Shown: positions 4,346-20,000 of the stretch, piece after piece
How positions within the stretch are numbered: the first letter of the stretch is position 1
Layout: each line of letters opens with the position of its first letter
Made by a program: the position numbers and the translations under genes
The notes under the pieces: generated by a model
The model's input: the letters and a program-made list of their open reading frames with translations, nothing else
The model's database searches: none
What the model was told of the DNA's origin: nothing
IMG/VR virus record: IMGVR_UViG_3300025844_000016
Reading direction: 5' to 3' (one strand)
Source of the DNA: an uncultured virus (IMG/VR IMGVR_UViG_3300025844_000016)
Taxonomy: Duplodnaviria > Heunggongvirae > Uroviricota > Caudoviricetes
DNA length: 20,000 nt

Positions 4346-4692
4346 CAGCGCGAAAAAGGTGGCTGGGCAGGGTCGTAGGCCGGGCCTATCGGGGAGCGAA
4401 TAGGTGAGCCCTCCGGCGAGCGGACAATCGGCCCCGGTGTGATGTCCACACCTGAAATGGGGAAATCGATCACCAGCTTGGGGATAGGCATGTTGAGTTC
4501 GCGGAGCTTCTTGAGCCCTTCGATCAAAGCATCCACTTGCTCCCCGGTGAGAACCAAGCATCCTTCGGTCTGGCCGGAAGCAACCGATCTGATTTCAAAC
4601 AGACCGGCCCCATCAACGTTCGGGCTGAGTGCGAGGTAATCACCGCTATCATCATCGTAGAGACGCAAGGCATATTCGGTGGTGAGCTTCAC
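4345..4692 (-). CDS. Hypothetical protein with Pro-rich C-terminus
   Basis: GTGA overlap with the upstream gene. Confidence 0.7.
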   Translation of the reverse strand: MKLTTEYALRLYDDDSGDYLALSPNVDGAGLFEIRSVASGQTEGCLVLTGEQVDALIEGLKKLRELNMPIPKLVIDFPISGVDITPGPIVRSPEGSPIRSPIGPAYDPAQPPFSR

Positions 4693-4880
4693 AGGAAATA
4701 CTCCAGAAGAAAGATGATCAGGCCCACCACAGCCGCAACGAACAGTGCGACAAGTTTACTGGGCGTGCTACGAGAACAATCCGGATAATCGGACCACCCA
4801 TGTGGATTGGTAAGGCTCAGATTATACAGAAGATACAAGGCAAGCCCTGCGACGACGATAACGATGGCAGGTTCGGTCAT
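4689..4880 (-). CDS. Small membrane protein with two predicted TM helices
   Basis: Hydrophobic stretches AIVIVVAGLALYLLY and LVALFVAAVVGLIIFLL; ATGA overlap. Confidence 0.7.
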   Translation of the reverse strand: MTEPAIVIVVAGLALYLLYNLSLTNPHGWSDYPDCSRSTPSKLVALFVAAVVGLIIFLLEYFL

Positions 4881-8637: not shown

Positions 8638-10268
8638 GCGTGGAACCTTCCCTTGTTGAGCGTGATGATCGTCCGCTTGCCGTTTTGATACGTGATGATG
8701 TGGCTGTGCGACCACGACGAAGGGCCCTTGTTGTAACCCATGTCGAGGCTACCAGAGACGCCACCAACGTAGGCACCATCGCGGATGGCCGGGCTGTGGG
8801 TGTGGCCGGTATTCGACTTACGGCCTGATCGGCTGATCGCCAGCGGCGAACCCCGCGACCCGTTTGGTCCAAGGTGGCCGTGCATACCGCATTCGATGTC
8901 GCCGCAGATGATGAAAGACTGATCTTCGTTGCAGAACACAACGTCCTCAGGTGTTCCCATCTCCCGCATGACTTGCTGGAACACGTCCGGCGAACTGTTC
9001 CCGGCCTGCATCTCCATGTAGAGCCACTTCTGGCAACTCAGGAAGAACAAGGCGTTCTCAGGATCATCACGATAGTCGGCCGTCTTGAGCCACTTGAGAA
9101 GGGCTTGGTCGTGGTTGGATTCCACAATCACTGACGTGCAGTCATCCCGATGAATTTGCTTGATGAACTCAGCGCAGCCATTCAAAGCCAACTGGACATT
9201 GTTGTTCTGTCCGCCGCGAGTGTGGGCAGCAAACCGGAAGTGGTGGTCCTTGATGTTGTGGTGGTTGCGCGGCGAGAAGTCGCTGAGGTCGTGGAAGAAC
9301 TCATACTTCGGCCGCAGCCGGTGGATCAGCGGCAGCGGGCGCGGATCGTGTGGGTCTCGGAAATTGTCGATGTCCCAAGCTTCCTGCGACGGGACATGGT
9401 ATCCCCACGTCAGCATGGCGACTTCGTGATCCAGCTTTTCGTGGTGAATGTCACCATAGCTGATCGCTTCGACGCGGTGATTGGTCGTCACACCTTGGCT
9501 GGTGACATAGCGATCGAGATCGTAGAACGAGCCATTCTCAAGATCGGTGGTCAGCAGGTGCCGGCAGTAGGTAGCACCGTCCGGAGTCATCTCGACCAGC
9601 ACGGCACCAATCTGGTGGTGGAAGGTGGCCTTGATACCGGCCTTCTTGCGGACGTAGTTCGGTAGCGTGACCGAACCCGTGGTCATCAACTGCTTGGCAC
9701 GCTCGTGCTTCATCGTCGCCACCGATTCCAACTGGACCTTCGGGTGCGGGAAGACGCCCCAGCGAGCGCGGGTGTAGGTGGCGAAACCAGACAGTGGGGT
9801 AACAGCCGTCGGTAGCGTGTTCATCTCGCCGCAGAAATCCACTTCGTCGCCCAGCCGCACGCGGTCATGAACGATGAAGTCATCCACAGACGGGTGGAAG
9901 CCGACTTTGGATGAACGGGTGTCGTGATCCTCGAACAGCTTCTTGCTGTAGGTGAACCCTGAAACGATGATCTCACATTCGCCCAGCCAGTGGGCGTAGA
10001 CATTTAGCGCGTTCCAGAAGTCCTCGTGGATGTCCGAACTGTCTTGAGCCGAAGTCAGGATGAAATAGCGAGTGTGATCCAGCGGTTCGTAAACCGTCGG
10101 CCGGAGCGGACGGTTCGATGAGAACACGAACTCGATCTGTTCACCGAGGTCTTCCTGCACTGCAATGTTTCGCTTCATGCGATAACGCAGTGTGGACTCG
10201 GCGATGTTGAGGGCGCGGGCAGCCGGGCGGATACCGCCGTGCTGGGCGACCAGTTCAAGATATTCCAT
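8634..10268 (-). CDS. HTH plus calcineurin-like metallophosphoesterase/nuclease, T5 A1-like protein
   Basis: N-terminal HTH (GGIRPAARALNIAESTLRYRM); motifs GDIH, SNHD, HGH, GHTH. Size and C-terminus resemble T5 A1 homologues (from recall). Confidence 0.75.
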   Translation of the reverse strand: MEYLELVAQHGGIRPAARALNIAESTLRYRMKRNIAVQEDLGEQIEFVFSSNRPLRPTVYEPLDHTRYFILTSAQDSSDIHEDFWNALNVYAHWLGECEIIVSGFTYSKKLFEDHDTRSSKVGFHPSVDDFIVHDRVRLGDEVDFCGEMNTLPTAVTPLSGFATYTRARWGVFPHPKVQLESVATMKHERAKQLMTTGSVTLPNYVRKKAGIKATFHHQIGAVLVEMTPDGATYCRHLLTTDLENGSFYDLDRYVTSQGVTTNHRVEAISYGDIHHEKLDHEVAMLTWGYHVPSQEAWDIDNFRDPHDPRPLPLIHRLRPKYEFFHDLSDFSPRNHHNIKDHHFRFAAHTRGGQNNNVQLALNGCAEFIKQIHRDDCTSVIVESNHDQALLKWLKTADYRDDPENALFFLSCQKWLYMEMQAGNSSPDVFQQVMREMGTPEDVVFCNEDQSFIICGDIECGMHGHLGPNGSRGSPLAISRSGRKSNTGHTHSPAIRDGAYVGGVSGSLDMGYNKGPSSWSHSHIITYQNGKRTIITLNKGRFHA

Positions 10269-18231: not shown

Positions 18232-18793
18232 GGAATGCCAGCCTGATGGCGATAGTGTGAGGCAACTCACATAAAGGGGGTAAGGCCACTTAACCCCGCC
18301 GGTCCCGATCGGTCAATTCAGGCAAGCGCAGTCAGGTCCGCGAGGACCGCTTCACCGGGATAACCTTGCAAACTTAGCATAGTTGGTAATGCAAACGACT
18401 CTTAATCGTGAGATCGGTGGTTCAAACCCACCAGTCTGCTCCAAACGCAAAGATTGCCACGACTGCATGTGAAAGACGCCTAATGCCATAGAGGCTTGCC
18501 TCAATGTGGCCCGACCTGATCTCGCAAGGTGATGGTTGGTTGGTGGAAGAAGTTTCGTTGGGCCCGCAAGCCCTTAATGGCTGGAGACAGTCAGCGGAAT
18601 CGAAACTGCCGAATATCATGCAGTGTCACCGCAAATGCCAGCGGTCCCGTGAGAACCGGGAGAAAAAGGCGGCGTTGGTCTGGAACTGAGCTACCGCAAG
18701 GGGCTTGGTGGATAAGTCGGGAAGGTGACTCGCAAGGTCACTATAATCTGACGAATGACGGATCGTAGCGGGTGTAATCTCAACCTGCTTCCA
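18232..18793 (+). ncRNA. GOLLD-like RNA (compact, about 560 nt) with embedded tRNA
   Basis: Many CGCAAG/GCAA-capped hairpins; ordered motifs TGAAAG...CTA, GTGGATAAG, ATAAT and a terminal hairpin with loop GTAATCTCA match my recollection of the GOLLD 3' domain; embedded tRNA and phage tRNA-cluster context are typical of GOLLD. Not checked with a covariance model. Confidence 0.7.
18368..18443 (+). tRNA. tRNA-Lys(CTT) with encoded CCA
   Basis: Acceptor GCAAACT/AGTCTGC (one A-C mismatch), D arm GCAT-agttggta-ATGC, anticodon arm ACGA-ctCTTaa-TCGT, T arm GGTGG-ttcaaac-CCACC, then T-CCA; 76 nt. Confidence 0.9.
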
Positions 18794-18797
18794 TTTT

Positions 18798-18980
18798 TCG
18801 ATTTCTATGTTGGCCCAGCAAAGAAGGTTAGCTACCTTCCCCTCGGTTCCCGCAGGTCAGGTCGATCCCAGCAATTCTCGAATGCAGACGGATCGTCGAA
18901 GCATCAGGTCCAGTAATTCGAGCCGTGGCTTGATCGCATTGGGCGTCGCTGCAAACCCGCTGGGTCATCATAGAAAACGA
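18798..18980 (+). ncRNA. Unassigned structured RNA B (about 180 nt)
   Basis: Terminal helix TCG-a-TTTCTATG-t-TGGCCCAGC / GCTGGGTCA-t-CATAGAAA-a-CGA; inner helices GAAGG/CCTTC, GGTCAGGTC/GGCTTGATC, CTCGAAT/ATTCGAG. Confidence 0.65.
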
Positions 18981-18982
18981 TA

Positions 18983-19151
18983 GCCCGGAGTAACCGCCAC
19001 AACAGATTGGTAGCTTCCATGGAAAGTTGTCGGGAGTTGGTCAGGGATGTTTAGGTGAAGTCGCCTTCGAAAGCGGCGCGGTGGATCGGAAAGCAGGGTT
19101 GATCTCCTGTGGAACGATAGGCCAGTGGTTCGACTCCACCTCCGGGCTCCA
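18983..19151 (+). ncRNA. tRNA-like RNA C (169 nt): acceptor stem, T arm and CCA around a large non-tRNA body
   Basis: GCCCGGAG/CTCCGGGC 8-bp stem, GTGG-TTCGACT-CCAC T arm, T discriminator plus CCA; no canonical D or anticodon arm. Confidence 0.7.
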
Positions 19152-19158
19152 TAACGCT

Positions 19159-19298
19159 TCACTCGTAATGAAGCTTCTCAGCGGAATGTCGGCGGTCACG
19201 CGACCTAACCGGCGATCCGTGGGTTTACACTGAACCGGCGGAAGGAAGGGCGTAGTGAACCCGGCCGAGCTTCGAGAGGCCCCATTACGAGTGATCCA
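19159..19298 (+). ncRNA. Unassigned structured RNA D (about 140 nt)
   Basis: Perfect 12-bp TCACTCGTAATG/CATTACGAGTGA followed by T-CCA; inner GCTTCTC/GAGAGGC and GGGTTTAC/GTGAACCC. Confidence 0.65.
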
Positions 19299-19427
19299 TT
19301 TGTGATCGGGCCGGCGGCACCAGATAGGTTTAAGGCGAGTGGACTCCCGTCGAACGGAGACGACAGACCCGGATAAAAACCGTGTATGGGTGTTGCTAGT
19401 GCTTTGGCCGCCGGCCTGATCACAGAT
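19298..19427 (+). ncRNA. Unassigned structured RNA E (about 130 nt)
   Basis: 21-bp terminal helix ATTTGTGATCGGGCCGGCGGC / GCCGCCGGCCTGATCACAGAT, with two G-U pairs. Confidence 0.65.
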
Positions 19428-19430
19428 GTT

Positions 19431-19516
19431 TCACTTGCAACAAGGGAGGCGGGCACCGTCGGGAAACCGGGACGGATGATTCGCGAACTTTAGTCCGCTC
19501 TCCTTGTTGCGAGTGA
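19431..19516 (+). ncRNA. Unassigned structured RNA F (86 nt)
   Basis: About 24-bp terminal helix TCACTTGCAACAAGGGAGGCGGGC / GTCCGCTCTCCTTGTTGCGAGTGA (G-U pairs, one mismatch); apical CCGTC-GG-gaaa-CC-gg-GACGG. Confidence 0.65.
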
Positions 19517-19530
19517 TGTTCGAGTTTTTC

Positions 19531-19691
19531 TCACTTCCCTGTCCGCAGGGGTGACCCGGTAGGTAACCAAGGGTGGTTCGAATATCCTCGCATTTAGTTC
19601 CTGTGGGTTCCATGGAGCCCCTTGAATCCTCAAGCAGGTGACAGAGAGTTAAAGGAGCCGCCCTGCTCCGAAACCAGATAAAATGGGTGAG
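19531..19691 (+). ncRNA. Possible structured RNA G (multi-hairpin; boundaries uncertain)
   Basis: Hairpins CCCTG-tccg-CAGGG, GGGTG-gttcgaa-TATCC, GGGTTC-catg-GAGCCC, CTTGA-atcc-TCAAG, GGAGC-cgccct-GCTCC; closing CTCGCATTT/AAATGGGTGAG. Confidence 0.5.
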
Positions 19692-19704
19692 TGCAATTTT
19701 TTAG

Positions 19705-19733
19705 TTGACATTCGAATCGGATGTCGTTACACT
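19705..19733 (+). promoter_or_regulatory. Promoter of the leader-peptide / tRNA unit
   Basis: TTGACA-ttcgaatcggatgtcgt-TACACT; CGAATCG in the spacer. Confidence 0.8.
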
Positions 19734-19785
19734 TCGATCATCAAGACCGGGATGTTCCGGCCAAACAGGATTTCAGAGTTCAACC

Positions 19786-19875
19786 ATGTTCAACGTAGTC
19801 GCCATGAATAACCCAGCAGCACCGGCCATTATGGTCCCGGTCGCGATGGCGTGCGAACAGATGGTTGGTGGCTAG
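19786..19875 (+). CDS. Putative leader peptide (29 aa, MFNVVAMNNPAAPAIMVPVAMACEQMVGG)
   Basis: Short ORF between a promoter and a terminator hairpin; SD is weak. Confidence 0.5.
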   Translation: MFNVVAMNNPAAPAIMVPVAMACEQMVGG

Positions 19876-19904
19876 GCCACTTCACTCTCCAAGCAGTTAT
19901 CTCG

Positions 19905-19941
19905 ATCGGGGGCCATGGCAACATGGCCCCCGATTTCGTTT
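19905..19941 (+). terminator. Terminator/attenuator hairpin immediately upstream of tRNA-Pro
   Basis: Perfect 13-bp ATCGGGGGCCATG-gcaa-CATGGCCCCCGAT followed by TTCGTTT. Confidence 0.7.
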
Positions 19942-20000
19942 CAGGGTCTAGCTCAGTTGGAAGAGCGTCCGGTTTGGGACCGGAAGGCCGTAGGTTCGAG
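19942..20000 (+). tRNA. tRNA-Pro(TGG), truncated by the window edge
   Basis: CAGGGTC-TA-GCTC-agttggaa-GAGC-g-TCCGG-ttTGGga-CCGGA-aggcc-GTAGG-TTCGAG... Confidence 0.92.

Follow-up and report, generated by a model that had tools for sequence, protein, structure and literature searches.

Among described systems, the trpL, hisL, multivalent thrL and ilv leaders are attenuators of amino-acid operons, while the pheM/pheST attenuator of phenylalanyl-tRNA synthetase exerts feedback on the translation apparatus through charged tRNA. The pheL leader peptide of E. coli is likewise described as an attenuator of an amino-acid operon in the accessible part of PMC3082878. The trn operon of Anabaena, a spare array of 26 tRNA genes carried on a mobile element, is switched on by translational stress (accessible sections of PMC10272220). 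The reason for the large tRNA arrays of phages has been debated for decades. According to the accessible sections of PMC10264068, the main ideas are that phage tRNAs compensate for codon usage or stand in for host tRNA that has been destroyed, and phage tRNAs counter tRNA depletion. PARIS and Retron-Eco7 are defences discussed in the same context. In those same sections there is no mention of sensing or control of phage tRNA transcription, and the strings "attenuat" and "promoter" each occur 0 times.

Here, we analyzed a 20,000-nt stretch of DNA (the window), which corresponds to positions 7317-27316 of a 39-kb virus contig. At its 3' end a preliminary description had recognized the layout of a ribosome-mediated attenuator in front of tRNA genes. 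We find three promoter-ORF-terminator units on the contig and read them, with a probability of roughly 85%, as multivalent ribosome-mediated transcription attenuators that tie synthesis of a tRNA block to the speed at which the codons of that block are read.

RESULTS

A conserved leader ORF and terminator precede the first tRNA block

The 3' end of the window falls 59 nt inside a tRNA-Pro gene, and ARAGORN detected 27 tRNA genes on the whole contig, 26 of them at or beyond window position 19942. Among named phages, Erythrobacter phages XM05 and vB_EliS-L02 and Sphingobium phage Lacusarx stand closest, and phiCbK is more distant; integrase identity amounts to 84% for XM05, 52% for vB_EliS-L02, 50% for Lacusarx and 37% for phiCbK. 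Unit 1 was compared across nine distinct copies (the window, L005, L006, XM05, vB_EliS-L02, L014, L020/L026, L040 and L044). L005 and L006 were retrieved through a neighbouring protein (five loci, three of which were identical to the window), L020 by the leader-2 pattern, and XM05 and vB_EliS-L02 by a 3-kb DNA search. As L014, L040 and L044 were retrieved by ORF-core patterns, the core is biased toward invariance in this set. Chance pattern matches, all lacking tRNAs, were discarded (1 of 7, L015; 2 of 9, L024 and L025; and 8 of 13). Prophage or host copies of the unit were rejected as well: a tRNA was present in none of 10 pattern matches in genome contigs, and the Sphingobium match sits inside a long coding frame.

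Unit 1 lies on the + strand and begins with a predicted sigma-70-type promoter (TTGACA-17-TACACT, 19705..19733), which matches the consensus at 10 of 12 positions; transcription is expected to start near 19740. A TTGAC(A/C/T) promoter followed by a leader of 28-48 nt before the ATG was found in all nine copies. Within the 5' leader, a CCGGG/CCGG hairpin followed by CCAAACAGGATTT occupies 19747..19773 (+). The 39-kb contig carries two exact copies of this 13-mer, one in the leader of unit 1 and one in that of unit 2. The hairpin is found with altered sequence in most unit-1 copies and is absent from L044. A search of 19705-19941 against Rfam profiles (E up to 1) returned no match to a T-box or any other cis-regulatory RNA.

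Leader ORF 1 (19786..19875, +) encodes MFNVVAMNNPAAPAIMVPVAMACEQMVGG followed by a stop codon. Its 29 codons, 5 of them Met and 6 Ala, favour Pro, Ile, Asn, Met, Ala and Val. The ribosome-binding site of the ORF is weak, with AGGA and GAG ending 15 nt and 7 nt upstream of the ATG, respectively. The ORF is 28-31 codons long in all nine copies. Gaps inside it are multiples of 3, save for one 2-nt gap at the edge of the count, while gaps 3' of the ORF measure 1-3 nt in the nine-copy alignment. Both alternative frames contain stops in every copy. The leader ORF thus appears to be under selection for its frame. Hardly any variation is seen in its core, NNP-(A)-PAIMVP, even at third codon positions. 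None of the three leader peptides of the contig matched a family, leader or arrest peptides included, in NCBIfam (E up to 1) or PHROGs (E up to 0.1), although such short queries are weak in these searches.

The ORF is followed by an intrinsic terminator (3:4; 19904..19941, +) of 13 Watson-Crick pairs plus a G-U. The perfect 13-bp stem (19905-19917/19922-19934) carries a GCAA loop, and the tail TTTCGTTT (19934-19941) abuts the tRNA. The hairpin folds at -29.4 kcal/mol (z -6.8), a value matched by 0 of 200 shuffles. All nine copies have the terminator 24-31 nt past the stop codon, with a hairpin of -19 to -29 kcal/mol and a tail rich in T. The tail 8-mer TTTCGTTT has three occurrences in the contig, one behind each leader terminator. 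A simple terminator scan did not list the unit-1 hairpin. Directly after the tail, at 19942, begins tRNA-Pro(TGG), the first gene of block 1 (19942..20000 in the window, extending to contig position 27333, +; detected by ARAGORN and as an Rfam tRNA). Thus, the promoter, the 29-codon ORF and the directly adjoining tRNA-Pro all lie where the preliminary description had placed them. Its perfect hairpin with a U-rich tail is also present, but the tail is interrupted by CG. That description had further proposed to look for ORF and hairpin upstream of tRNA genes in relatives, and all nine copies have them, with tRNA-Pro(TGG) as the next gene in every case.

Several other elements were noted on the contig. 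The window positions 18340-18786 match the GOLLD RNA (122 bits against a gathering score of 150, E 5e-33), and a tRNA-Lys(CTT) lies at 18368-18443 within the 5' part of this match; tRNAs in GOLLD linkers are noted in the accessible part of PMC12286853. The following ~900 nt (18790-19700) hold many hairpins and no long ORF, and a tRNA-His-like call near 19076 appeared at a lowered threshold only. A two-piece alphaproteobacterial tmRNA with its own promoter upstream was found at 9519-9950 of locus L001. CGAATCG, a GANTC site, lies in the spacers of five TTGACA promoters (window 16502, 18200 and 19705; contig 29384 and 33522) and is not kept in every relative. GcrA acts at methylated promoters, as stated in the accessible text of PMC4647560; the exact GcrA motif considered for the promoter spacer does not appear as a string in that text.

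A predicted antiterminator rod competes with the terminator

In the preliminary description, ATGGTCCC inside the ORF (19831-38) was proposed to pair with GGGGCCAT in the 5' arm of the hairpin (19909-16) as an alternative antiterminator. The positions and the pairing are as claimed, but at -12.5 kcal/mol, compared with -26.5 for the terminator stem, this 8-bp pairing is too weak to compete as the sole antiterminator and proved to be the foot of a rod of 32 pairs. The rod (19831-19917, 87 nt) folds at -42.3 kcal/mol (z -4.1; 0 of 200 shuffles). Its 5' strand, region 2 (19831..19875, +), consists of codons 16-29 plus the stop codon, which is located in the apical loop. The 3' strand, region 3 (19876..19917, +), comprises the spacer and the 5' arm of the terminator. 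A rod of 30-36 pairs and -41 to -48 kcal/mol was found in all nine copies, and in each of them 0 of 300 codon-order shuffles equalled it. Because the rod takes in the terminator 5' arm in 9/9 copies, the two structures are mutually exclusive. A 1:2 pairing, a candidate anti-antiterminator or pause hairpin, is present in the minimum-energy folds of most copies; in the window copy it does not stand out from shuffles (z 0.2).

On a MAFFT alignment, RNAalifold gave only 12 pairs, 4 of them with both sides changed, at -7.3 kcal/mol. As the spacer is poorly aligned, we used cross-folding instead, in which the rod strands of the nine copies were folded with their own and with each other's partners. 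Own partners reached a mean of -25.6 kcal/mol and other partners -16.0 kcal/mol, and the own partner was the best in 6 of 9 rows. This outcome was reached by 1 in 100000 permutations, a figure that is no true probability since the sequences are related. Thus, the two strands of the rod change together across the nine copies.

These data bear on a reading in which the locus produces a small peptide or a trans-acting RNA of 200 nt, and the hairpin either terminates leakily without being regulated or marks a processing point upstream of tRNA-Pro. The terminator tail indeed adjoins the 5' end of the tRNA directly, and a transcript of this length would fold into a compact RNA. However, the C-terminal third of the peptide varies, yet its RNA co-varies with the spacer, and the arm captured by the rod keeps GGGRCC in 9/9 copies while the upper terminator stem changes. 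We therefore consider this reading very improbable.

The modelled position of the ribosome shifts the terminator margin

To the attenuator we assign a proposed sensor stretch, region 1, consisting of codons 2-13 (19789..19824, +); a ribosome located here would leave the antiterminator strand free. In folds with a ribosome footprint of 28 nt, the terminator margin was smallest with the A site at codons 10-13 in all nine copies. Moving the A site from codons 10-13 to 14-17 raised the margin by 9-16 kcal/mol, again in 9/9 copies. Stalls in codons 14-22 favoured termination under both this footprint and a shorter one. The margin did not change sign, and the terminator won at equilibrium at every ribosome position in all nine copies. 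In the window copy, the early-stall margin of -15 to -18 is close to the ribosome-free value of -18. In the cut transcript, the rod also formed without a ribosome or with a ribosome at the stop codon (0.91). Because the terminator always wins at equilibrium, the unit-1 switch must be kinetic if these models hold, and folds of this kind cannot prove kinetic control.

We infer that leader ORF 1 is translated and that kinetics and regulation follow the course below. RNA polymerase would start near 19740, and behind it a ribosome would translate the leader ORF. With normal reading speed at the Pro, Asn, Val, Ala and Met codons, the ribosome would reach codons 14-26 and cover the 5' rod strand, so that the terminator would fold and the transcript would end at 19941. 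If the ribosome lagged in codons 2-13, the rod (19831-19917) would zip before the 3' arm of the terminator exists, and the polymerase would continue into the genes for tRNA-Pro, Ile, Asn, Met, Val and Ala. Once made, these tRNAs would relieve the lag, which would constitute a negative feedback.

Three leaders match three tRNA blocks

ARAGORN called Pro(TGG), Pro(CGG), Ile, Asn, Met and Ala in block 1, to which we added Val(GAC), an Rfam tRNA match with the anticodon assigned by eye, and Val(CAC), a cloverleaf recognized by eye. The window ends inside this block, and the two further promoter-ORF-terminator units lie beyond it. Unit 2 has a promoter at contig position 29384 and the leader MTYGFTKRDRRRGEERGFTS (29466-29528), followed by tRNA-Lys(CTT), then the terminator and then block 2, which runs Lys, Gly, Gly, Asp, Glu, Arg, Glu, Arg, Phe, Arg. 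Unit 3 has a promoter at 30794 and the leader MFTQTALQSLTGSLLCWHSQYSSLSPF (30830-30913), followed by tRNA-Ser(CGA), the terminator and block 3 (Leu, Thr, His, Gln, Ser, Cys and Trp, plus Tyr by eye).

Block 1 also contains some unusual features. Three tRNA genes with odd T loops were missed by default ARAGORN (a CAT-anticodon gene, Val(CAC) and Val(GAC); L001 3425-3505, 3780-3860 and 4958-5035), and XM05 has similar genes. There are two weak promoter-like sites inside the block, both held within an AT-rich ORF (L001 ~4540-4880) with Cys/His pairs that look HNH-like by eye. The stretch at L001 3645-3748 weakly resembles YrlA (Y RNA-like), at 37.5 bits against a gathering score of 69.

The 20 amino acids are split among the three leaders in the same way as among the tRNA blocks behind them. 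Residues belonging to the set of the own block number 22/28, 14/19 and 21/26 for leaders 1, 2 and 3, against expected shares of 0.32, 0.38 and 0.30, while swapped leader-block pairs match at 0-5 residues, at or below background. Among 200000 random partitions of the 20 amino acids, none reached the total match. With default ARAGORN calls alone, 17, 14 and 20 residues are matched, which 2 of 200000 partitions reached; for leader 1 taken alone with these calls, the number was 1142 of 200000. Furthermore, each leader ranks first for its own block among 258 ORFs of the contig (ATG-led, 18-45 codons). In leader 1, codons 3-13 fall in the block-1 amino-acid set without exception (11/11), as do all of codons 14-22, where the sole Ile codon is found, and at the codon level 19 of 28 codons match block 1.

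Anticodons with a codon in their own leader amount to 7/8, 9/11 and 13/14 for units 1, 2 and 3, and two of the four unmatched ones are Lys(CTT) and Ser(CGA), both located upstream of their terminators. AAG is missing from 9/9 copies of leader 2 and TCG from 6/7 copies of leader 3. This is a hint that the omission of the codons of these ungated tRNAs is meaningful, although the copies are related. The attenuator reading of the preliminary description is supported by the kept frame, the terminator and the co-varying rod, and also by the match of leader and block, which recurs in all three units and with rearranged blocks in other phages. Its suggestion that the tRNAs are transcribed only upon stalling is weaker than claimed, because two tRNAs of the sister units precede their terminators.

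The folding of units 2 and 3 was analyzed in the same way. In unit 2, an antiterminator strand directly follows the stop codon in 9/9 copies (-17 to -21 kcal/mol), a geometry resembling that of trp, and the margin in this genome goes from -7 to -19. A stem of 15 bp flanks and encloses the tRNA-Lys(CTT) of this unit (L001 5543-5655) and makes up the upper part of the antiterminator. In unit 3, our folds showed no switch in the energy profile. A CTGACGC motif lies in a hairpin loop in 7/7 copies and its complement in 6/7 terminators; the two may form a loop pairing that is beyond the model of the folding program.

Promoter-proximal elements such as those of unit 1 could also belong to a timing switch, in which a phage or host antitermination protein acts on the 5' hairpin plus CCAAACAGGATTT and the ORF is incidental, with the layout of lambda PR'/Q or of nut sites as the model. 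The distance of ~200 nt from promoter to terminator, the recurrence of hairpin and 13-mer in unit 2 and the equilibrium folds, which favour termination, would all fit such a switch. On the other hand, it leaves the conservation of the frame, the rod and the codon match unexplained. Moreover, the 13-mer varies in relatives, and unit 3 lacks a 5' leader altogether, its ATG lying 7 nt past the -10 box in 6/7 copies. A timing switch therefore has only a slim chance of being correct.

Leaders follow rearranged blocks in other phages

We found the same layout in the tRNA regions of 7 of 9 named phages. Scanning the arrays of RcXuper and MD18 revealed no set of promoter, ORF and terminator. In Lacusarx, block 1 is present and leader 1 is missing; between the last ORF and tRNA-Pro (L010 7700-8020) there is also no stretch of GOLLD size. 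In total, 22 of 25 leaders in nine genomes are enriched for their own block (p 0.002 or less). The other three, ORFs before Glu/Asp pairs, showed no enrichment for the amino acids of their blocks. The 20-codon ORF of phiCbK (L032 3082-3141), 9 nt past a promoter, lies inside a hairpin before tRNA-Glu and tRNA-Asp, and CcrSC and Bajun have a similar ORF that is not enriched for Glu or Asp.

In phiCbK, CcrSC and Bajun, the blocks are composed differently, as Pro/Thr/Lys/Leu/His/Ala/Ser and Tyr/Phe/Val/Ile/Gln/Asn/Arg. The leaders of the former match at 41/44 (phiCbK gp083), 33/38 (CcrSC) and 38/41 (Bajun) residues, and those of the latter at 19/31, 18/31 and 20/30, respectively. Mesorhizobium phage Cp1R7A-A1 has a separate Pro/Val/Ile/Glu block, and the leader of that block matches at 14/23, the other leader at 39/42. 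The block sets include tRNAs assigned by eye (for XM05 Val and Met, for phiCbK Tyr and Asn, for Cp1R7A-A1 Pro) as well as a putative Met in L026 and a putative Tyr in XM05. Blocks and leaders agree in the placement of Pro, which goes together with Val and Ile in two lineages but is separated from both in phiCbK. The phiCbK record has no Thr, His or Ala tRNA annotated behind gp083, itself annotated as hypothetical and placed in a PHROG with no assigned function. With a lowered threshold, ARAGORN detected Thr, His and Ala tRNAs, all behind gp083, as the leader predicts. The leaders can thus point to tRNA genes missed by annotation.

In five leaders of Caulobacter, Brevundimonas and Mesorhizobium phages, the margin jumped by 13-28 kcal/mol close to where the matched codons end, and in two phiCbK-like leaders it changed sign. 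The margins of the Tyr/Phe/Val leaders go from -3, +4 and +4 to -22, -24 and -17 kcal/mol, and those of Cp1R7A-A1 from -8 to -21 and from -4 to -20. The margin of gp083 shifts little and that of its Bajun counterpart not at all; one Brevundimonas phage leader showed no switch in its profile.

The rearranged blocks also help to judge whether the attenuator senses general ribosome slowing or peptide arrest rather than the supply of particular tRNAs. The near-invariant core of leader 1, third positions included, would fit an arrest peptide or a structured RNA, and any lag in codons 2-13 yields the same fold. However, three unrelated leaders each match their own block and the swapped pairs do not, and a general sensor needs no composition that tracks rearranged blocks in other phages. 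This reading is improbable, if somewhat less so than the other two alternatives.

DISCUSSION

By the attenuation reading, unit 2 would do for Lys, Gly, Asp, Glu, Arg and Phe, and unit 3 for Ser, Tyr, Leu, Thr, His, Gln, Cys and Trp, what unit 1 would do for its own block. The block sets cut across biosynthetic families and differ by lineage, which points to tRNA supply as the signal. The shortage itself could stem from host nucleases that cleave tRNA, from a general decay of the host tRNA pool, from demand at its peak or from starvation; we give host anticodon nucleases about one chance in three of being the main driver. We see even odds for a broader proposal, a three-channel tRNA homeostat. 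Here, the three leaders would audit the 20 amino acids, only the block of the failing codons would be switched on, the order of genes would be set by regulation, and the system would sense host defences that cleave tRNA. The ungated tRNAs of units 2 and 3, Lys(CTT) and Ser(CGA), sit inside the switch, and their folding or processing may be part of it.

If attenuation is correct, phage tRNAs would be an inducible reserve, the gene order of the arrays would be explained, and the switch would serve as a direct readout of the host tRNAs that fail in infected cells. The laboratory phage phiCbK carries this design as well. In the literature searched, where subscription journals are thinly covered and a prior mention is possible, we found no attenuation control of tRNA genes. 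We regard the element as real and conserved, a known mechanism in a use for which we found no published precedent, and the completeness with which sensor and output match is unusual.

The phages phiCbK (PMC3556154), Lacusarx (PMC5648845), XM05 and vB_EliS-L02 belong to the same or a near clade, and the same leaders are present in their records; the main text of PMC3556154 and PMC5648845 contains neither "attenuat" nor "leader". According to the accessible sections on depletion-countering phage tRNAs, these provide a reason to top up tRNAs when translation fails. In Anabaena, as far as the accessible sections describe it, the repressor TrcR controls initiation of the whole trn array, whereas the phage units provide one RNA switch per block. 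The pheM/pheST attenuator, unlike the phage tRNA units, responds to one amino acid, has a protein output and belongs to a host operon. With the attenuators of amino-acid operons, the phage units share a short ORF rich in control codons, a 2:3 antiterminator opposed to a 3:4 terminator and, as proposed here, the position of the ribosome as the switch. In contrast to them, the phage units would gate tRNA genes instead of enzymes, between 4 and 15 amino acids would be sampled per leader, the sets cross biosynthetic families and vary by phage lineage, and two of the units carry a whole tRNA gene between the stop codon and the terminator.
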